Positions 9,423-18,194 of a DNA stretch of 64,000 nucleotides are shown piece after piece; position 1 is the first letter of the stretch; each line of letters opens with the position of its first letter. Origin of the DNA: a virus (Duplodnaviria > Caudoviricetes). The stretch is from the IMG/VR virus record IMGVR_UViG_3300032030_002018; one strand, given 5' to 3'. The notes under the pieces are model-generated. The model saw nothing but the letters and a program-made list of their open reading frames with translations, had not been told where the DNA came from and made no database searches. A program made the position numbers and the translations under genes.

Positions 9423-10175
9423 TTATATCATTTTCTCTCTTAATACTCTCCTAATGCTTTCTCTGATTATCCTATTGAAGTTTTCTGTTACAGGTGCGTC
9501 ATCGTTATTATTCTTACTAAACCTTCCCTTTCTTAAAACATACCTTAAGTTGTCAACTCTGTTATTGTGGTAATCACCGTCAATGTGTTCAACATCGTAA
9601 TCTTCTATATTACCTTCCGGCTCGTCCAACCAAGCGTCTGCCACAATTGTGTGAATTGGCGGTGTGGTCTTTTGAGATAAACCAGAGTCATCAAATGTAT
9701 CAAGATGATATTGCATTGCCTTTCTTGTTGGAGCATCATAACCATAAGATATGAAACTCTTATTCGGGTTTTTAAAATCAATCCTACGTATTCTTCCCAT
9801 ATTAGATGCCGCGTGAGAGTTTGTATAGTCACTTGCGCCTCCAAAGAATCTACCAGTATTCTTTACAGGCCTCCACTCTTCTCCTGATATTTCATTTTCA
9901 GCATCAGCGAATTTCTTATTTAATTTACGAACTCTATCCAAATAAGCGTCTTCCGTTTCATTTTTCTTCCTTCCGACCGGCTTGTTTTTCTTATTTGCTT
10001 TCTTATAAAATTTTCTCGCATTTCTGTCGTATTTCCATTCTTTCGGGTCAAGATGCATTTTTTCTCTGGCATAACCCTCATCTCCATCCCAATAAAACCA
10101 ACTATCGCCAGCCGTTTCTTTTAAGACATTCTTGACAGCGTTGTTTACTATTGTCTTTATTATATTTCTATCCAT
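9423..10175 (-). CDS. NUMOD4-HNH endonuclease-like protein with tag-like termini
   Basis: EEWRPVKN...SNMGRIR (NUMOD4); IHTIVADAW...VEHIDGDYHNNRVDNL (HNH). Confidence 0.8.
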   Translation of the reverse strand: MDRNIIKTIVNNAVKNVLKETAGDSWFYWDGDEGYAREKMHLDPKEWKYDRNARKFYKKANKKNKPVGRKKNETEDAYLDRVRKLNKKFADAENEISGEEWRPVKNTGRFFGGASDYTNSHAASNMGRIRRIDFKNPNKSFISYGYDAPTRKAMQYHLDTFDDSGLSQKTTPPIHTIVADAWLDEPEGNIEDYDVEHIDGDYHNNRVDNLRYVLRKGRFSKNNNDDAPVTENFNRIIRESIRRVLREKMI

Positions 10176-10250: not shown

Positions 10251-11456
10251 CTTTACAATGTTTCTGTAAAATTCAACCCTTTGTTTACAAACAGTGTCAA
10301 GAGAGTACTTGTCTTTCACAAAGTTGTACAAATTATCTTGAAGTTTTTTAACCATATCGGGATTTTCTGCAAGTTTCTTGATATATTTACCCCACTGTTT
10401 ATGATTCTTACTTGTTTCGACCAACAACGCTGTACCTTCATCATTGATTACTCCGCCTTTCTCAATCATTGACTTCAAGTTGATTGTATAAGCACCGAAC
10501 TCCTGCGCAATCAAAGCAGTATGTGTGAAACCGGCTTCAATTTCCTTAAGTTCACTCTTCATCTTGTTGAAATCCGTTTCCTTAAGCGGCGCAAGTAATA
10601 CGTCAACATTCTCATAATGAGTAGCATATTGCGATATATCCCTTGTCCACATTCTCCTATACGGTTCATTTACAAATGGGTCGTCAACACCTTTTGCATA
10701 CTTCATAAGAAAATCCTTATGTTCTGGACTAATAATTCTATAATTATCAGTTATAATCCTCTCGTAATCACACCATACACTCTCCTCAGGGTATATAGGT
10801 CTTCTTGTAACCTCACCTGTATCCTTATTGTATATTGTTCTCGTTCCATTAGTATCAAAACCACACAACACAAGTTGCACCTTGTCAAGTGGTATTTGAA
10901 ATGTCAGACCCTTCAAAGGTTCTATATCCTTTAGGTGCGAAGAACCGCATATCAATCCAACCCTAAGTCTGTCAGATTTTGTTTTTGGATGTGTATATTG
11001 CTCTTCCTCAGGATTTATCGCATTAGGAAATACAAATACATTCTTATTGTACTTTTTCAGCTCATTTGCGTAAATCTTTGTAGTTGTTGTAACATAATCA
11101 GCAGCCTTAAGGTGGTTTATTATTGGGATGTGCCATTTTTCCTGTTTTGCACTTAACGACATAGGATGATGGTCTCCAAGGAAGAAATAATCGTCAACAT
11201 CCACAACAACAGGTATTCCAAGGAACTTAATCGTGTTCATTAAATTCATTTGCCCATCCAATTGTTTGTGTATGTGTATGATATCATATTTTGAGAAGAA
11301 ATCAGAAGGATTATCCTTTGGGATTTCATACACAATGTCAACTTGGAACTCATCACCATAATGCTCCTGTATATAAACGTGCGGGTCAACAGACCTGAAT
11401 TTTCCACAACCGTGCTTGTCCGACGGTATGACAAGAATCTTTATTTTATCACTCAT
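10230..11456 (-). CDS. Glycosyltransferase (GT-B/GT4-like)
   Basis: GCGKFRSVDP, VVVDVDD, VFPNAI and DVLLAPL...KSELKEIEAG; start taken at MSDKIK. Confidence 0.8.
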   Translation of the reverse strand: MSDKIKILVIPSDKHGCGKFRSVDPHVYIQEHYGDEFQVDIVYEIPKDNPSDFFSKYDIIHIHKQLDGQMNLMNTIKFLGIPVVVDVDDYFFLGDHHPMSLSAKQEKWHIPIINHLKAADYVTTTTKIYANELKKYNKNVFVFPNAINPEEEQYTHPKTKSDRLRVGLICGSSHLKDIEPLKGLTFQIPLDKVQLVLCGFDTNGTRTIYNKDTGEVTRRPIYPEESVWCDYERIITDNYRIISPEHKDFLMKYAKGVDDPFVNEPYRRMWTRDISQYATHYENVDVLLAPLKETDFNKMKSELKEIEAGFTHTALIAQEFGAYTINLKSMIEKGGVINDEGTALLVETSKNHKQWGKYIKKLAENPDMVKKLQDNLYNFVKDKYSLDTVCKQRVEFYRNIVKKNAGTE

Positions 11457-11512
11457 AAAATACCTTTTCTTAAAAAATATGAAAAAAATATAAAAAAACA
11501 ACCATAATTCGT

Positions 11513-11543
11513 TTTGTTTTTTAAAAATTTTAACGTACATTTA
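11513..11543 (+). promoter_or_regulatory. Bacteroidota-type promoter for the polB N-terminal half
   Basis: TTTG(11513-16)-N19-TACATTTA(11536-43). Confidence 0.55.
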
Positions 11544-11569
11544 CAAAAAATAGTTAAAATATATATCAT

Positions 11570-14002
11570 ATGGTCGAGAAAATAACGCAACAAACTGTAA
11601 ATGACTTCCTTTTCGGACGAGACCCTATGGAACGGATAATAACAATCGAATGTGATTACACTGACGACGAGGTAAGCATAATCTATGTTGACGACAAAGG
11701 CGTAAAAAGGGTTAAAAGAGAACCTTTCAAACCATTTGCCTGGGTGAAGCATAGTGCCGCTATACGTATGTATCAAGGTAACAAGGGGACAATAAAGAGG
11801 AAGTTAATGGAGTACGGCATATGGGTGAAGTCTTTACAATCAAAGAAAACTGGAATTGATAGACTTGACAACGGATATGTGTATATGTTCTACGCGACAA
11901 GAAAGATGTCATTCACACAGTTCCTTTCATTCTTCACAGACGCTGGTACTCCAATATACGAAAGAAAGAAAAAGGGAAACGAACAAAATCAGGGTAGTAA
12001 AGAGTTTATGGTTGTCTCACCCGTTGAACAATATATGATTTCAACAGGTAAAAGATTGTTTAAAGGCTATGAAAACTATAACGAACTTAAAAGAATGTCA
12101 TTCGACATTGAAACACAAGGTCTTAACCCTTTAATTCATAGAATTGAACAAATTGGTATACGGACAAATAAAGGATTTGAAACCATAATAAGTGTAGAGG
12201 GTGAAACAGAAGAAGAAAAAAACCAAAATGAATTAAATGCCATAGAACAAACAGTACAAATAATAGCAGAAGAAAAACCTGATACAATATACGGTCATAA
12301 TTCAGAGAATTTCGACTGGGATTTCTTCATTGTTAGATGTGTTGTACTTGGAAGCAGTTTTGAGAAAATAACATCAAAATACCTTAAATTTCCGATATAT
12401 AAAAGGAAAAAGGAAACAATATTGAAACTTGGCGGTGAAATGGAATATTTCAAGCCAACAATAGCCTGGGGTTTTATAATATTGGATTCATTGCACGCTG
12501 TTAGAAGGGCGCAGGCACTCGATTCAAATATGAAATCCGCCAATCTTAAATATGTCACAAATTATCTTGACTTGAAAAAAGAAAACCGCGTATATGTACC
12601 AGGAAATATAATCAGCCAAGTGTGGAATGTAAAAGAAGAAAAATATGCTTTTAACGACAATAACGGAGATTGGTATGAAATCACAGACAAACATAAATTA
12701 CTTGACGGATATGAAAGAAAATCAGGTAAATATATAGTTGAAAGGTATCTATTGGATGATATATGGGAAGCGGAACAAGTCGAATTAAGATTAAATGAAT
12801 CAAACTTCCTTGTCGGTAAAATGCTCCCTACAACATTCCAACGTGCTTGCACAATGGGTACGGCTGGCATTTGGAAACTTATTATGCTTGCTTGGTGTTA
12901 TGAACAAGGAATATCAGTACCTTCAACAGGAGACAATAAACGATTCACTGGAGGTCTTTCAAGACTGCTTAAAACAGGATGGGTGGACAGGATTGTCAAA
13001 CTTGACTACAATTCATTGTACCCTTCAATCACTCTAACTTGGAACATATCAACAGAACTTGACCAAACGCATATTATGCTCCACCTTCTTGAATATGTGC
13101 TTACACAACGAGAGAAATACAAGGAACTCAAAGCAGAGGCCGGCAATGAAGTTGACAGATGGAAAAATATGCTTCAAGACGCGAGAACGGAAGAAGAGAA
13201 GAAACATATCAAGTCAGAGATACATAGATGGAAAGCTGAGAAAATGGCAAACGACAAGAAACAATTGCCTCTTAAAATTCTTGCAAACTCATTCTTCGGG
13301 TCATTCGGTGCAGCATACATATTCCCATTCGGAGACTCAAACTGTGCGGAGAAAATTACCTGTATAGGAAGAATGTGCCTGAGACTTATGATTTCACATT
13401 TCACAAAACTTGGATATATGCCAATAGTAGGAGATTCGTTCACAGCAGACACACCTTTATTTATAAAATATAACGATACTGGTTTGATTGACATAAAACC
13501 AATATGTGAATTGATAAATGAAAATAATATAAAAATAGATGGATTGAATAGGGAATACGATTACTCAAAAAAATCATTTAAGGTACTTTGTAGAAGTGGA
13601 TGGGTAGAACCTGAATACATATACCGTCATAAGACAGAAAAGCCTTTATATGAGGTTTCAGAAGGCGATATGAGTGTTACTGTAACAGAAGACCACAGTT
13701 TATTTAATAATAAACAAGAAAAAATTAAACCAAGTGAAATAAACGATGATACGAAACTTGAATATTACGATGGAAAAATTGAACATTCATATCTTAACAC
13801 CAACATTAAGAGAGTAATTCAAATTGGAAAAATGCTTAAAAATGGTACAATTGACAGAATTCCTGTTGAAATATTGAATCTAAATGAAAAACAAGGAATA
13901 CAAGCATTCTTGGATGTTGTAAAAGACTTGGACACTGAAAATATGTCTAAAACATTACAAGCAGGAATACAATTTATCAAAAATAAAATGGTATCGAGAT
14001 AG
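11570..14002 (+). CDS. polB: Family B DNA polymerase N-terminal part (622 aa) fused to the N-half of a split intein (188 aa)
   Basis: Exonuclease motifs FDIET, HNSENFD and YLLDD; motif A DYNSLYPS; motif B KILANSFFG; motif C broken after VGD. Confidence 0.93.
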   Translation: MVEKITQQTVNDFLFGRDPMERIITIECDYTDDEVSIIYVDDKGVKRVKREPFKPFAWVKHSAAIRMYQGNKGTIKRKLMEYGIWVKSLQSKKTGIDRLDNGYVYMFYATRKMSFTQFLSFFTDAGTPIYERKKKGNEQNQGSKEFMVVSPVEQYMISTGKRLFKGYENYNELKRMSFDIETQGLNPLIHRIEQIGIRTNKGFETIISVEGETEEEKNQNELNAIEQTVQIIAEEKPDTIYGHNSENFDWDFFIVRCVVLGSSFEKITSKYLKFPIYKRKKETILKLGGEMEYFKPTIAWGFIILDSLHAVRRAQALDSNMKSANLKYVTNYLDLKKENRVYVPGNIISQVWNVKEEKYAFNDNNGDWYEITDKHKLLDGYERKSGKYIVERYLLDDIWEAEQVELRLNESNFLVGKMLPTTFQRACTMGTAGIWKLIMLAWCYEQGISVPSTGDNKRFTGGLSRLLKTGWVDRIVKLDYNSLYPSITLTWNISTELDQTHIMLHLLEYVLTQREKYKELKAEAGNEVDRWKNMLQDARTEEEKKHIKSEIHRWKAEKMANDKKQLPLKILANSFFGSFGAAYIFPFGDSNCAEKITCIGRMCLRLMISHFTKLGYMPIVGDSFTADTPLFIKYNDTGLIDIKPICELINENNIKIDGLNREYDYSKKSFKVLCRSGWVEPEYIYRHKTEKPLYEVSEGDMSVTVTEDHSLFNNKQEKIKPSEINDDTKLEYYDGKIEHSYLNTNIKRVIQIGKMLKNGTIDRIPVEILNLNEKQGIQAFLDVVKDLDTENMSKTLQAGIQFIKNKMVSR
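13436..13999 (+). mobile_element. Split intein, N-terminal half
   Basis: Block A SFTADTPLFI starting with Ser; block B TVTEDHSLF (TxxH); no block F/G before the stop. Confidence 0.88.
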
Positions 14003-14023
14003 ACGAATTTGTAAATCATATGA

Positions 14024-14098
14024 TATTATTACAGCAATCTTGGGATAGATTATCCGTATGAAGTTTTTGAAGATAAAGAAAAAATTTTGGATAATTGA
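14024..14098 (+). pseudogene. Remnant C-terminus of a free-standing endonuclease gene (probably Vsr/DUF559-like homing endonuclease)
   Basis: Start-less frame YYYSNLGIDYPYEVFEDKEKILDN*, resembling from memory the C-termini of such phage endonucleases; lies between the intein halves. Confidence 0.5.
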
Positions 14099-14116
14099 AA
14101 TATTTTTATATCTTTA
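14086..14116 (+). promoter_or_regulatory. Bacteroidota-type promoter for the polB C-terminal half
   Basis: TTTG(14086-89)-N19-TATCTTTA(14109-16). Confidence 0.55.
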
Positions 14117-14157
14117 ATAGTATTAAAACAAATGTTTAATTAAAAAAATATAAAATT

Positions 14158-14277
14158 ATGTTAAATATCAAAAAAATGGAGGATAGCCAAAACATCGGTG
14201 TTGTGTACGACATTTCTCTTGATGGCACGGTAGTGAATGCCCTTGGGATGAATGTTATTAGCAACACCGATGGCTGA
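14158..14277 (+). CDS. polB: Split intein C-half (36 aa) plus the first C-extein residues TDG; not in the ORF track
   Basis: MLNIKKMEDSQNIGVVYDISLDGTVVNALGMNVISN|TDG*: block F VYDI, terminal SN, +1 Thr; restores GDTDG. Confidence 0.88.
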   Translation: MLNIKKMEDSQNIGVVYDISLDGTVVNALGMNVISNTDG

Positions 14278-14279
14278 AT

Positions 14280-14493
14280 GGTTTCAACTTTCAAATGCCG
14301 AAAAGCGAAGATTTTAGATACACAGAAGAACATCCATACATAAGTGATGGTGGAGGAAGAAATAGCATTAAAGGAAAGAAATATACTGGAATAGAAGCTG
14401 ACGTTGCTGAATTTGAAGATATATTCTTCAATCACCCATTTAACGGTGGAGTTAACAAATTTGGTTTAGGAATAGATGAATTTTGTGATGCCT
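14280..14493 (+). CDS. polB: PolB palm segment (exon between the frame discontinuity and the group I intron)
   Basis: GFNFQMPKSEDF...GLGIDEFCDA continues motif C in a shifted frame. Confidence 0.8.
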
Positions 14494-14750
14494 TAACAGA
14501 ATATGGGCACGTTAAATCCCTTTTAATTGACTTGGAACTCCAATTTGGACAACAGGGCGCAAGCAAGAATTTATATATGTTCTGTGCAGCGTGAACGACT
14601 AAATAAAGGGACGATTAATCAAAAACGATTAATTGATGCGATAGTCTGAACTCTATGGTAACATAGAGAGGGAAACCCGAAGAGATTTCCCCGTTCAATC
14701 AAAATGATTGAATCACGCTATATAAACCACGATAGCGGCGTAACAGATTG
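14494..14750 (+). ncRNA. Group I self-splicing intron (257 nt, no ORF)
   Basis: P1: exon UGCCU with IGS GGGCA (U-G at the splice site); P10 GAAUAU/GUAUUC; P3 UCCCUUU/AAAGGGA; P7 GACUA/UAGUC; P8; P9 with GUAA tetraloop; terminal G. Splicing gives in-frame DA-C-IQFSRKNYA. Confidence 0.92.
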
Positions 14751-15979
14751 GTATTCAGTTCTCACGCAAAAATTATGCCGACTTAATGCCTGACGGAAAA
14801 ACAAAGAAAGTCGGTAATACTATAAAATCAAGGAAAATGTCTGGATATTTGGAGAAATTCATTGACAGTGGTGTTGACTTGTTGTTAAGAGGAAACGGTC
14901 ATCAATTCTTGGAGAATTATTATTCTTACATTGATGATATATACAATTATCGTATTCCGATAAAGGATATAGCCTCAAAGGGTAATATAAAGAAAACGAT
15001 TGATGAATACAAAAATGACTGTAAGCAAGTAACAAAGGCTGGCAGCAAAAAGCCAAGACAAGCCTGGTACGAATTGGTAATTCAGAATAATATCAATGTA
15101 AATGTAAGTGATACAATATATTACATAAACACAGGTACAAAAAAGAATCATTCAGATGTAAAACGTATTACTCATCAATTTACTCAATATTATGGTGAAG
15201 AACAAGAATTGACAACAAAATTAAAAACATCAATATTAAAGGAATTATGCGAGAAAAACAACCTTATTTATAAGGATGTCAAACAGAAGGAAAGAAATGA
15301 GATGATAAAACCATATATTTCAAGGGAAGAAGACGAAATTGTATTGAATTGCAAAATGGTTCCGAATGAGATAATAAACAGTGACGATGTTGTTCTTTGC
15401 AGTGACGTTGAGGATATGGAATACAATGTTGAGAAATACATTGAGCAATTCAACAAGAGAATAAAAGGCTTGCTTGTTTGTTTCTCACCAGACATAAGGG
15501 ATTCAATATTAGTTAAAAAACCTTCTGAAAGAAAATACTTTACTGATGAAGAATCACAGCTAGTCTGTGGATATCCAAACAAAGAAACTGACCAAGACAC
15601 CTATGAGGCATTGATGACACCTGAAAAGAAGGAAATAAGTTTCTGGCTGTCAATAGGGGAAGTTCCACCATTTGTAAAGGAATGTGATATCGATTGGGAT
15701 AAATTAGTAGAAGAGTATAAAGAGAATAAAAAGAAAGAGGAAACTGAACTATTCCAACACGAAAATGAACAATATCTGAAAGCCTTGGATGAACTGACAG
15801 ATGAAGATATTGATGAATTTGAAAATGAAGGAACAATACCTAAATCATTGACAGATATTGTATATATGGATTCAGATATGCATTTCTATTTCAAAAACAT
15901 ATCAGAAAAAACAACACCTTCAACAGGAGGATATATATTTGATGACATCAAGAAAATTGAATACGATGTTTCTTATTAA
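14751..15979 (+). CDS. polB: PolB C-terminal exon (end of palm and thumb)
   Basis: The frame of the 14786 ORF extends upstream to IQFSRKNYADL (conserved KxY motif), then KVGNTIKSR. Confidence 0.88.
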
Positions 15980-16018
15980 AAAAAAATGAGCAGTCATTGG
16001 TTTGGCTGCTCATTTTTT
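15978..16018. terminator. Bidirectional terminator, ATGAGCARTC family copy 2
   Basis: ATGAGCAGTC-N8-GGCTGCTCAT. Confidence 0.85.
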
Positions 16019-16028
16019 ATATTTGCAA

Positions 16029-18194
16029 TTAAACGCCTTGATTTGATAATAATCTGAAATTCAAATCATTAAGTGCTTCTGCTACTACCCTGTTAGCATT
16101 ATCTAATGCTGTTTCAAGTTCTGTTATTCTTGTTTCCAATGCTGCAATTCTTGTTTCAAAGGATTGAGCAGTTGAATCCAACAAGACATCTGCGTCATTC
16201 AACGATGTGGCTGCGCTGATATATGGAGAGCCAGTGTTTGCTGAATAATCGGTTTCAACTGTGACACCTGTTAGAACACCGTTAGATTCGCCCACAGTTA
16301 CAGTAACAGTTCCGTCGGTAGATACACCTGATGCTGTTGAATTAAGTGTACTTACCTTATAATCAATTGCATTCTGTATGTTTGAAATCTTTGTTCCACC
16401 AGAACTTACAGTGAGAACATCACCTGACACACCGTTCCCCGTAACGACCTTTTCAGAGTTTGTGTCAATTTTAACATAAACCTTATGGTCATCTACATAT
16501 AATCCATCCTTAAATTCGTTTTCGTCAAGTAATGTTTCAATATCCACGTTAACCAAATCATAAGTTCCATCGTATAACAAGTAAATAAAGCACAATGCTG
16601 TGTCACCAGTACCAGGAATAACAGTTGGCGTGCCTCCTGAAAGTTCATCATCTGTATGCCCTAAGTATGCTTGATACAAAGAACTGTCCTTCTTTATCTG
16701 TATTGCATCTCCAATTTGTGTTTTGGATGTATCTCCACTGTATATCAATCTATATTCCTCACTTACGTTCGCGTCAAGGTTGTCAGTTATCTTGGCGATT
16801 TGTAGACCAGATGAAAGAACGCCGTTATTGTCTTTTACGATAGTTGTCCCATCTATATTTGCTTCAACATTAGTTCCGCTAGTACCTGTTGTAACAACAA
16901 CAGTTTTGCCTGATGATGACAATGTGCTTGCCTTTGACGCTATTTCTGACAAAGCAGATTGTACAGTCGTGCCGGTAAATCCTGATGGAGTCACAATAAC
17001 ATCTGACGCATTGACATTTCCAAGAGTTGCATTAACTTTACCATCAGTTTCTGATACAGAAACAACTACTTTACCGTTTCCTGATACGGTTGCCAAATCC
17101 ATATCAAGTATGCGCGAATTAAGGTCATTTAAAGCACTTGAAACAACAAGTTCGTTATCCAATATAGTCTCGCTTACTATGCTGATTGCATCGCAAACTC
17201 CACTAGCACCACTCAATAACTCATCAGTGAAAGGACGGAAACTACCATCTCCAAGAACAAGACCAACACCTGATATTATTCTGGCAACCATCATCTCGGT
17301 ATTGTATAAGTTGTCTTGCAGACCATTTACCCTCAAGATAATATTATTATCATTAGTTTCCCTTATTCTAGTTTCTTGTGACAAATCACTTGATAGTGAA
17401 GATACTTCACCTGAAATAGTGTCAACATTACCTGATACAACATCAACCCTCTCATTCAAATCATTCAATGCAGACGATACATCTTCTTCATTTTGGATTA
17501 TAACGTCACTGATAGTTTCAATTGCCCCTATCACACTGTTACTACCACTTACAATAGTACCGCCATCAAAACCATTGAATGTTCCGTCACTTTCAAGACC
17601 AACAGACTCTATTATATTGTCAACAACTCCACTCAAAGCATTGTCACCATCAATTCTGTCCTGTATCTCAGTGTCAATCTTACCGCTAAGTACATCGTCA
17701 GCATCAATCCTGTATTGTATCTCAGCGTCAATCTTATCATTTAATGAATTATCAGATTCAATCCTTGCGGTTTCCTCATCCTCCAATGCATCAGACAAAG
17801 TATTAACAGCACATTCCATTGTTGTACAACCACTTATATACTTGTTGTCAACATAAGGAGCATATCCTATATTAGATTTCCCATCCTCGCCACCGGTAGT
17901 TGAGCCTGAAAGACCAACAGATGCGATTATGTCGCTGAATGACTTTTCGATATTGTCAACATCAAGTTCTCCTACATCAACAAGAGAAAGGTCAAGATTT
18001 CCGTTCTTATTGATTACGCAGCCGATTATAGCCTCAATTGAACCTGTTTTGGATGTGTATCTAAACAGCACAATCTCACCGTCTGACATACCAGATAATT
18101 GTGTGGCTTTAAATGCCTCTACATTAGCCAAAGCAGTGTCACGGTTAGCATAAATTGTGCTACTTCTGAAAAATTGTAATTTTCTTCTTTCCAT
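16029..18194 (-). CDS. Putative virion fibre protein (paralogous family)
   Basis: N-terminal LQFFR; EIQxRIxAD coiled-coil repeats; modules shared with the 37476, 40427 and 43216 genes. Confidence 0.7.
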   Translation of the reverse strand: MERRKLQFFRSSTIYANRDTALANVEAFKATQLSGMSDGEIVLFRYTSKTGSIEAIIGCVINKNGNLDLSLVDVGELDVDNIEKSFSDIIASVGLSGSTTGGEDGKSNIGYAPYVDNKYISGCTTMECAVNTLSDALEDEETARIESDNSLNDKIDAEIQYRIDADDVLSGKIDTEIQDRIDGDNALSGVVDNIIESVGLESDGTFNGFDGGTIVSGSNSVIGAIETISDVIIQNEEDVSSALNDLNERVDVVSGNVDTISGEVSSLSSDLSQETRIRETNDNNIILRVNGLQDNLYNTEMMVARIISGVGLVLGDGSFRPFTDELLSGASGVCDAISIVSETILDNELVVSSALNDLNSRILDMDLATVSGNGKVVVSVSETDGKVNATLGNVNASDVIVTPSGFTGTTVQSALSEIASKASTLSSSGKTVVVTTGTSGTNVEANIDGTTIVKDNNGVLSSGLQIAKITDNLDANVSEEYRLIYSGDTSKTQIGDAIQIKKDSSLYQAYLGHTDDELSGGTPTVIPGTGDTALCFIYLLYDGTYDLVNVDIETLLDENEFKDGLYVDDHKVYVKIDTNSEKVVTGNGVSGDVLTVSSGGTKISNIQNAIDYKVSTLNSTASGVSTDGTVTVTVGESNGVLTGVTVETDYSANTGSPYISAATSLNDADVLLDSTAQSFETRIAALETRITELETALDNANRVVAEALNDLNFRLLSNQGV

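Follow-up and report, generated by a model that had tools for sequence, protein, structure and literature searches.

The polB gene of a Caudoviricetes virus (IMG/VR record IMGVR_UViG_3300032030_002018), analysed here within a 64,000-nt stretch of that record (the window), very probably carries a functional, naturally split class-1 intein in what is the only DNA polymerase gene of the phage. As read here, this one gene, which encodes a family B DNA polymerase (PolB), bears three interruptions: the split intein, a short gap in the coding sequence that contains a stop codon, and a group I intron. Trans-splicing of the intein would by itself yield no full polymerase, since the 8-nt stop-containing gap and the intron are also in the way. 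With moderate confidence, we consider a ribosomal hop from one Gly codon to another to be the most likely step by which the full-length C-terminal fragment is reached. The virus record to which the window belongs is 334,687 bp long, with a CheckV completeness of 96%. In this record PolB is the sole polymerase of family A, B or C (no PolA or DnaE was found), and the C-extein is single-copy. Megablast against 50,697 phage records gave no match, and tblastn against phage records found distant PolBs alone, at 23-24% identity.

The N-extein, residues 1-622, aligns with uninterrupted relatives over its residues 1-622 and ends in ...MPIVGD, the first half of motif C. The N-half of the intein (IntN) follows directly. 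The two halves lie on separate open reading frames (ORFs) in different frames, with TAG at 14000 closing the first and ATG at 14158 opening the second (Table 1). An initial annotation, made from the letters of the DNA, had proposed a split intein in PolB motif C, with an N-half that starts at Ser (SFTADTPL), has TEDH in block B and ends at the stop at 14002, and with a separate ORF at 14158 that encodes a 36-aa C-half (IntC), VYDISL...ISN/T (a slash marks a splice junction). The features of the N-half can all be read in the sequence, and the second ORF, 14158..14277, was confirmed. The position of its start Met is shared with two relatives, L052 and L180 (MLNSKKMEDSQ...). Splicing of ...VGD with TDG... 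would rebuild the motif C sequence GDTDG.

Relatives were taken from viral and metagenome contigs. A protein search with the IntN region covered 5.8 billion proteins and gave 1,756 matches at E<=1e-3. The best 120 of these are all 798-865 aa long, which is the length of an N-extein plus IntN, end where the window ORF ends and are 60-69% identical to it. The stop is kept in position across such diverged sequences and is therefore no pseudogene lesion. The site occurs among relatives in four states: no intein, contiguous intein, split, and split with the gap. An intein-less site (...VGDTDGFNF...) is found in 51 distinct relatives, a contiguous 355-aa intein with two LAGLIDADG motifs in 11, and a split like that of the window in 54. 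The distance between the halves of split relatives ranges from 49 nt to 4.6 kb. In one phage (L047/L017) the halves are separated by genes on the opposite strand, and the C-fragment is one clean 516-aa ORF, IntC-TDGFNF.... On a tree of C-exteins the four states are thoroughly interleaved, with 45 changes needed, and therefore the element moves among polB alleles. From this comparison, we regard the split as real and old.

The residues expected to act in splicing are conserved. In the alignment of 28 split relatives S1, D5-T6-P7, R64-H65, T84, D86 and H87 are invariant; block B has the TxxH motif as T84-E-D86-H87, with T, D and H invariant. An Arg or Lys followed by His is the 'NX' motif, a signature of inteins that begin with Ser (PMC10189870), and is present here as R64-H65. 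The terminal Asn and Thr+1 (N/TDG) are found in all aligned split and contiguous relatives. Thus the proposal of a split intein with Ser1, Thr+1 and a terminal Asn is borne out by relatives that keep the break and by the invariance of its catalytic residues. The likeness drawn in the annotation between the length and SN ending of the C-half and those of cyanobacterial DnaE is also correct, as both have a 36-aa IntC that ends in (A/I)SN. The junctions (Ser1, Thr+1) are cysteine-free, as annotated, and cysteine is present elsewhere in the intein: IntN contains Cys24 and Cys52, and the latter is invariant in the 28 split relatives, with Thr at that position in contiguous relatives. Because of this invariant Cys52, the intein in the window is not entirely cysteine-less. 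At two loci, L053 (~7878) and L054 (~9362), the intein ends in Gln and not Asn (...VVAQ/TDGFNF and ...VLKQ/TDGFNF).

Homology of the halves to inteins is visible only via relatives and profiles; Pfam scores no intein family for either half. The contiguous intein of L003, which occupies the same PolB site, shares 40% identity (E 8e-25) with residues 1-117 of IntN and 75% identity across 24 aa with IntC. Based on hhalign, the 28 split IntN sequences match contiguous inteins with a probability of 99.9% (E 1e-33). IntN alone gave only weak matches by phmmer against the PDB; a profile of the IntN family retrieved 9HTH, the Aes123 PolB1 intein, at E 4e-5, and also TFIIB mini-inteins. A check with Hint and intein profiles, which the initial annotation had suggested, thus came out negative for the Pfam models and positive for the family profile and hhalign.

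Another suggested check, structure prediction, agrees with an intein. The window halves lie in different frames, and for this reason we folded the fusion of a relative, L018, whose halves are 61% and 59% identical to those of the window and can be read through a same-frame spacer. The model was made with AlphaFold2 (AF2) from an alignment of split and contiguous relatives. Its predicted local distance difference test (pLDDT) score is >93 for IntN and ~90 for IntC, with a disordered linker. A Foldseek search of the PDB gave 15 matches at E<=1e-3, every one of them an intein (among them 9HTH, PolB16 OarG, TFIIB, VMA and PI-PfuI); gp41-1 lies just beyond the cut-off (E 1.9e-3). Based on this fused relative, the two halves are predicted to form a Hint fold together.

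The second interruption, which the initial annotation did not mention, lies three codons into the C-extein. The window reads ACC GAT GGC TGA AT GGT TTC AAC..., and the polymerase resumes from GGT 14280 in the -1 frame; exon 1 read in this frame matches TDG-FNFQMP... of relatives exactly. A gap at this exact point is found in 18 of 65 distinct intein-bearing C-fragments. The 18 gap alleles come from more than 12 different assemblies and are all split, and the gap is present in 0 of 11 contiguous and 0 of 51 intein-less alleles. In every one of the 18 a GGY take-off codon is followed by a stop, then 2-4 nt, then a GGN landing codon. From take-off to landing codon the gap measures 8 nt in five alleles, 9 nt in 12 and 10 nt in one. 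The stop is TAG in 10, TGA in six and TAA in two; the landing codon is GGT in 10, GGC in seven and GGA in one. Gapless alleles use all four Gly codons at the take-off position. An exact-pattern scan of viral contigs for the gap sequence of the window gave no match, and a degenerate pattern gave four gap matches.

The reading frame beyond the gap is maintained. Downstream of the landing codon there is an intact ORF of 472-516 aa, and between carriers this part of the extein is under purifying selection (synonymous differences per site, pS, 0.42-0.97, i.e. saturated; nonsynonymous, pN, 0.03-0.36; Ka/Ks 0.06-0.27). The five carriers of an 8-nt gap are 46-60% identical to one another in protein sequence. 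Just past the gap the codons for G-F-N/D-F vary synonymously only. Given the purifying selection and these synonymous-only changes, we conclude that the shifted frame has long been translated from that Gly codon.

The gap is linked to an RNA hairpin within IntC. In its basal stem the I-G-V-V codons of IntC make up the 5' arm, and the S-N-T-D codons make up the 3' arm together with the first G of the take-off codon; this G forms the last pair of the stem. Positions 14190-14275 of the window fold with a minimum free energy of -36.6 kcal/mol (z -5.9). To compare alleles, we folded the segment from 90 nt upstream through the take-off codon. The mean energy is -35.3 kcal/mol (z -4.5) for gap alleles, -16.3 (z -0.2) for gapless split alleles and -15.4 for contiguous alleles. 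Pairing in the stem amounts to 99.4% over 15 distinct sequences. At two of its pairs both sides have changed, from A-U to G-C in three sequences and from G-C to C-G in two; these compensatory changes alter IntC residues (IG to VR) and match synonymous changes in the 3' arm. Of the 12 stem positions, 17 gap alleles have all 12 complementary and the remaining one has 11; most gapless split alleles have 4-8 and the contiguous alleles 4-5. Only three gapless alleles have 10-12 of 12 pairs (L098/L079, L029 and L173). They are the closest kin of the gap clade and represent either recent losses of the gap or a precursor state of the hop cassette.

On the intein tree only 4 changes are needed to account for the gap, with 22 gapless inteins grouped in one supported clade; the tree of the host gene calls for 13-15. 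As the gap changes far less often on the intein tree than on the tree of the host gene, the gap and the hairpin travel with the intein. The proposed mobile cassette comprises IntC, the 80-nt hairpin with its 12-bp stem running to the Gly take-off codon, the stop, 2-4 nt and the Gly landing codon.

How the ribosome would enter the downstream frame is narrowed by several results. Reassignment of stop codons was ruled out, since a TAA lies four codons past TAG 14000, all three stops occur in gaps and none of the 16 tRNAs of the genome is a suppressor. Classical -1 frameshifting was ruled out, as there is no slippery site. No start codon gives access to the shifted frame, there is no slippery site and the genome encodes no suppressor tRNA. 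A frame-independent Gly-to-Gly hop is favoured, as no other one mechanism accounts for gaps of 8, 9 and 10 nt alike. In this step the ribosome would go from GGC 14272 over TGA-AT to GGT 14280, probably driven by refolding of the 80-nt IntC hairpin. By analogy, a stem that zips up behind the ribosome could pull the mRNA by 8-10 nt, in line with current models of T4 gene 60 (bioRxiv 10.1101/2024.12.09.627546).

Two other accounts of the gap were weighed. If termination took place at TGA 14275, IntC would act as a three-residue donor: IntC-TDG would trans-splice to give N-extein-TDG, and the remainder of the polymerase would restart near GGT 14280 and join non-covalently. A real stop does follow TDG directly in 18 of 18 gap alleles, and natural PolBs are known that are split and assemble non-covalently (M. 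thermautotrophicus and T4-like phages; cited in PMC2677866). [quoted passage not shown] The synonymous-only variation of the G-F-N/D-F codons implies that translation enters the frame at the Gly codon, and the matched GGY take-off and GGN landing codons, like the stem that ends at the take-off codon, are left unexplained. We therefore hold this account to be unlikely.

Slightly less likely again is a mixture of recoding events, in which 8-nt gaps would be passed by a -1 frameshift, 10-nt gaps by a +1 frameshift and 9-nt gaps by readthrough, with 2-3 extra residues after TDG. Stops beside shift sites can stimulate frameshifting, and 12 of 18 alleles have in-frame gaps. Yet this account needs three mechanisms at one homologous site. 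No slippery heptamer is present, and tRNA-Gly on GGC would have to re-pair with UGG. All three stops are used (TAG 10, TGA 6, TAA 2) in the face of a genome without a suppressor tRNA, and the extra residues would land inside the catalytic beta-hairpin. The Gly-to-Gly hop thus remains the preferred reading of the gap.

The third interruption, a 257-nt insert in the C-extein, is very likely a group I intron that has to be excised, to judge from its pairings and from the gene on either side. Relatives read ...GLGIDE.CDACIQF[AS]RKNYADLMPDG...; the window departs from this after CDA and resumes with IQFSRKNYADL 257 nt on. GGGCA (14505-14509) can form P1 with UGCCU of the 5' exon, including a U-G pair at the splice site, and GAAUAU (14499-14504) can form P10 with GUAUUC of the 3' exon, so that GAAUAU-GGGCA serves as the internal guide for both P10 and P1. 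A P7 core is also present. Joining ...GATGCCT to GTATTCAG would make a TGT Cys codon and the product CDA-C-IQFSRKNYADL, equal to the CDACIQF[AS]RKNYADL of relatives. When 311 nt were searched alone, the Rfam family RF00028 matched with 38.1 bits (E 1.8e-8) and so fell short of its gathering score, which is 50. An Rfam search over the 5.5 kb of 11000-16500 found nothing and missed the intron. In L068 (8830-9134) an RF00028 group I intron scoring 70.6 bits lies a few codons from the site in the window. L097 is interrupted nearby as well (~11300-11800), and Rfam gave this insert no identity. The window, L068 and L097 have three different insertion points within ~12 codons of one conserved stretch.

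Promoter-like motifs of the same architecture, TTTG-N19-TAnnTTTA, precede both fragments in the window. In 17 of 57 distinct related loci such a motif lies upstream of the IntC ORF at a distance of at most 120 nt, compared with 2% of random windows, and the -7 element of relatives is often TAnnTTTG. The TTTG-N19-TAnnTTT motif resembles the -33/-7 promoter consensus of Bacteroides, and the host might accordingly belong to the Bacteroidota. Across the whole window this Bacteroidetes-type motif is not enriched (6 matches, 4.2 expected), and a scan of the spacer for sigma-70 promoters did no better than shuffles.

Several points weigh against a working split intein and a translated gap. Thr+1 and Ser1 are weaker nucleophiles than Cys, and the penultimate residue of the intein is Ser, where His is usual. 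Pfam intein and Hint families score neither half (E<=1), nor did they match the C-extein pieces. The structural model is that of the 61%-identical L018 read through its spacer, and not of the halves of the window itself. The C-half ORF stops after TDG, and if translation terminates there, splicing gives a truncated enzyme (N-extein-TDG). No terminator-like site was found in the spacer, and for that reason independent transcription of the C-half is suggested at most. Finally, trans-splicing, hopping and intron excision are all inferred from sequence.

Another reading is an intein that serves for dimerisation only, with halves that do not splice and merely keep the two pieces of the polymerase joined. 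The halves of split inteins do bind each other tightly, and further interface could come from the conserved stump on IntN. We nevertheless find this improbable, as S1, the NX His, TxDH, the terminal Asn and Thr+1 are all invariant and an unspliced domain of 224 residues would separate the two catalytic aspartates of motif C.

Even less credible is a decaying pseudogene, with a broken intein, a dead polymerase gene and another polymerase in use by the phage. There are three interruptions within 800 bp, and the endonuclease stump is degenerate and the spacer holds a relic gene, all of which gives that impression, but the 96%-complete genome has only this polymerase of family A, B or C. Relatives with saturated synonymous sites have kept the break point and the catalytic residues as well as both exteins, and each interruption has a matching repair signature. 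An assembly or sequencing artefact, with a false stop and false indels, comes to mind because the window is from a metagenome-assembled record, and can be all but dismissed, as the same architecture occurs in hundreds of independent contigs from many projects and the gap alleles from >12 assemblies.

With a split intein as the preferred reading, expression of the polymerase might proceed as follows. Translation would give two separate products, an N-fragment made up of the N-extein and the 188-aa IntN and a C-fragment made up of the 36-aa IntC and the C-extein, the latter reaching full length by the hop and after removal of the 257-nt group I intron. IntN and IntC would then associate into the Hint fold. 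Splicing would take the oxyester route, with an N-O shift at Ser1, attack by Thr+1 and cyclisation of the terminal Asn, and would yield ...VGD-TDGFNF....

The IntN tail bears on the origin of the split. By hhalign its residues 132-187 map to positions 214-284 of contiguous inteins, the second LAGLIDADG half, from which the GDG catalytic block has been lost. The last ~70 residues of IntN are conserved and are helical in the L018 model (pLDDT >93). We interpret the tail as what remains of the second half of a LAGLIDADG endonuclease domain. In relatives, one or two ORFs with DUF4379 (treble-clef zinc finger) and DUF559/MTES_1575 (Vsr-like nuclease) signatures usually occupy the stretch between the halves. 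The window spacer has no full endonuclease gene and only a start-less relic, which is 71-81% identical by tblastn to the C-termini of the intervening ORFs in L079, L082, L107, L114, L115 and L020. A reading of the spacer as an intron was ruled out: it has no RNA family match, and the spacers of relatives hold protein genes, some on the opposite strand.

From the comparison with relatives we infer a history of the polB split. A contiguous LAGLIDADG intein would once have sat at the GD/TDG point of PolB motif C. Its own nuclease would have decayed, and a free-standing Vsr-like endonuclease gene within it would have cut the gene in two. That endonuclease gene would later have been deleted from this phage, leaving 21 codons. 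With its intervening gene reduced to the 21-codon relic, the window would therefore represent a late-stage 'fractured gene'. Nearly every stage of the proposed route of gene fracturing is found at this one site (empty, contiguous LAGLIDADG intein, invading Vsr-like nuclease, relic, unlinked halves), and the pathway can thereby be compared stage by stage.

We lean towards a broader proposal, in which programmed translational bypass has a second natural family and the split intein carries it. Refolding of the hairpin would pull the mRNA 8-10 nt, with the result that peptidyl-tRNA-Gly lands in any frame, and the cassette would home among phage polB genes. If true, selection in nature would for the first time be shown to keep an efficient short-range hop, and this hop would be coupled to protein splicing, and here also to RNA splicing, in one gene. 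If confirmed, one essential gene would need protein splicing, RNA splicing and ribosome hopping. We found no published description of an intein-borne hairpin with a Gly-stop-Gly gap.

The initial annotation had also put the element forward as a candidate orthogonal tool for protein ligation. It has some practical value, as the family comprises hundreds of variants at 45-70% identity to be added to the few known cysteine-independent split inteins that protein chemists mine. The family has a different insertion point, Thr+1 and an unusual structured stump on IntN. Its uniqueness was overstated: natural cysteine-less split PolB inteins have been described and engineered, namely Aes123 PolB1 (CL/CLm), CP21 PolB1, LCGC14 PolB2, PolB16 OarG and Neq Pol (PMC11923092, PMC12707363, PMC10189870). 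Publications already cover natural split inteins that are broken at the endonuclease position, fractured genes that hold Vsr-like nucleases, and split inteins of phage PolB that are cysteine-independent.

Close upstream of polB, a 250-aa ORF on the minus strand (9423-10175) has an HNH-type motif (...EHIDGDYHNNRVDNLRYV...) and is likely another homing-type nuclease.

Table 1 Features of the interrupted polB gene and of its surroundings (window positions, except for the tRNA genes)
Feature	Position	Strand	Details
Promoter-like motif, TTTG-N19-TAnnTTTA architecture	11513-11543	+	before the N-fragment
PolB N-fragment ORF	11570..14002	+	810 aa: 622-aa N-extein + 188-aa IntN
PolB N-extein, exonuclease and palm to motif C (...PIVGD)	11570..13435	+	622 aa; Pfam DNA_pol_B and DNA_pol_B_exo1
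IntN, whole	13436-13999	+	188 aa; begins SFTADTPL right after VGD; has YIYRHK and VTVTEDHSLF
IntN Hint N-lobe, ~residues 1-117	13436..13786	+	Ser1, D5-T6-P7, R64-H65, T84-x-D86-H87 (block B)
IntN tail, ~residues 118-188	13787..13999	+	conserved helical stump
TAG stop ending the N-fragment	14000..14002	+	end position kept in relatives
Spacer between the halves	14003..14157	+	155 nt
Putative endonuclease relic in the spacer	14027-14089	+	start-less, 21 codons; encodes YYSNLGIDYPYEVFEDKEKIL
Promoter-like motif TTTG-N19-TATCTTTA	14086..14116	+	42 nt upstream of the IntC start
C-half ORF	14158..14277	+	39 aa: MLNIKKMEDSQNIGVVYDISLDGTVVNALGMNVISN/TDG, then TGA
IntC, blocks F and G, Ser-Asn end	14158-14265	+	36 aa; VYDIS...NVISN/T; peptide ending ...VVYDISLDGTVVNALGMNVISN
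Predicted RNA hairpin within IntC	14193..14272	+	80 nt; 12-bp basal stem, 14193-14204 pairs with 14261-14272
First three C-extein codons, Thr+1-Asp-Gly	14266..14274	+	Thr+1 at 14266; GGC 14272-14274 is the proposed take-off codon
Coding gap TGAAT	14275..14279	+	stop + 2 nt; missing from gapless relatives
C-extein exon 1, from landing codon GGT	14280..14493	+	G-FNFQMPK...GLGIDEFCDA + first base of the Cys codon
Candidate group I intron without ORF	14494..14750	+	257 nt; 5' exon ends U14493, intron ends G14750
C-extein exon 2, KxY motif and thumb	14751..15979	+	stop codon included; one copy in the genome
tRNA cluster	G000:C1:305327-313943		15 of 16 phage tRNA genes; includes tRNA-Gly(UCC); sixteenth at 252126-252209

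Among known inteins, the cyanobacterial DnaE inteins (Npu/Ssp) share the canonical split position and halves that are encoded apart. They differ in having Cys1 and Cys+1, DnaE as the host protein and an IntN of ~102-123 aa without a nuclease stump, and they are distant structural matches only (2keq, 4kl5). The archaeal 'pol-c' inteins (Psp-GBD Pol, Tli Pol-2) are inserted at D/TDG of motif C and have Ser1 and Thr+1; we treat the shared insertion point as a lead only. Neq Pol is a split, cysteine-independent PolB intein (mentioned in PMC10189870 and PMC2677866); the hosts of pol-c and Neq inteins, in contrast, are thermophilic archaea.

Among the closest known systems is Aes123 PolB1 of T4-like Aeromonas phages (PDB 9HTH, PMC11923092), the best sequence match of the IntN profile in the PDB and a structural match, with relatives in CP21 PolB1, LCGC14 PolB2 and GOM-OPS-1 PolB2 (PMC12707363). 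It too is a natural phage split intein in PolB motif C, split at the endonuclease position, with Ser1 and a hydroxyl residue at +1, a K/R-His NX motif and an IntC of ~39 aa. It is inserted at DTD/SVY with Ser+1 (PMC11923092), whereas the window intein lies two residues upstream, at GD/TDG, with Thr+1. The Aes IntN has 120 aa and that of the window 188 aa, which is longer because the LAGLIDADG stump has been kept. Similarity between the two is detectable by profile only, and neither a hop cassette nor an intron is reported for Aes. Another cysteine-independent split intein, PolB16 OarG, belongs to a metagenomic PolB from sheep gut (PMC10189870; PDB 8CPN). It is the one in which the NX His was defined, and it matches in structure; it differs in its atypical split (15 + 168 aa), its Ser+1 and its allele.

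In the layout of its relatives (N-fragment, DUF4379/DUF559 Vsr-like ORF, C-fragment) the system resembles the fractured genes of Dassa et al. 2009 (PMC2677866), and the window would be a later stage from which the endonuclease has been lost. The host gene here is PolB, at a site not listed in the accessible part of that report, and the window adds the hairpin and the stop-containing gap.

The nearest parallel to the gap is the bypass of T4 gene 60 in a MobA homing-endonuclease cassette (bioRxiv 10.1101/2022.08.31.505936; PMC5462505). Both have a Gly take-off codon, an immediate stop and a Gly landing codon, with take-off ~40-46 codons into the second ORF of an endonuclease-split gene, an upstream mRNA structure that is implicated and a mobile cassette. 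The gap of gene 60 measures 50 nt, compared with 5-7 nt here (8-10 nt from codon to codon), and there is no take-off stem-loop in the gap here. The two share no sequence similarity, and the gap in the window is attached to an intein half, with a hop that is read from sequence. In a survey of gene 60 homologues and in the literature, bypassing appears isolated and short hops are of low efficiency or synthetic. If the hop proposed here is confirmed, bypassing would be a recurrent companion of homing elements and no longer a curiosity of T4 gene 60.

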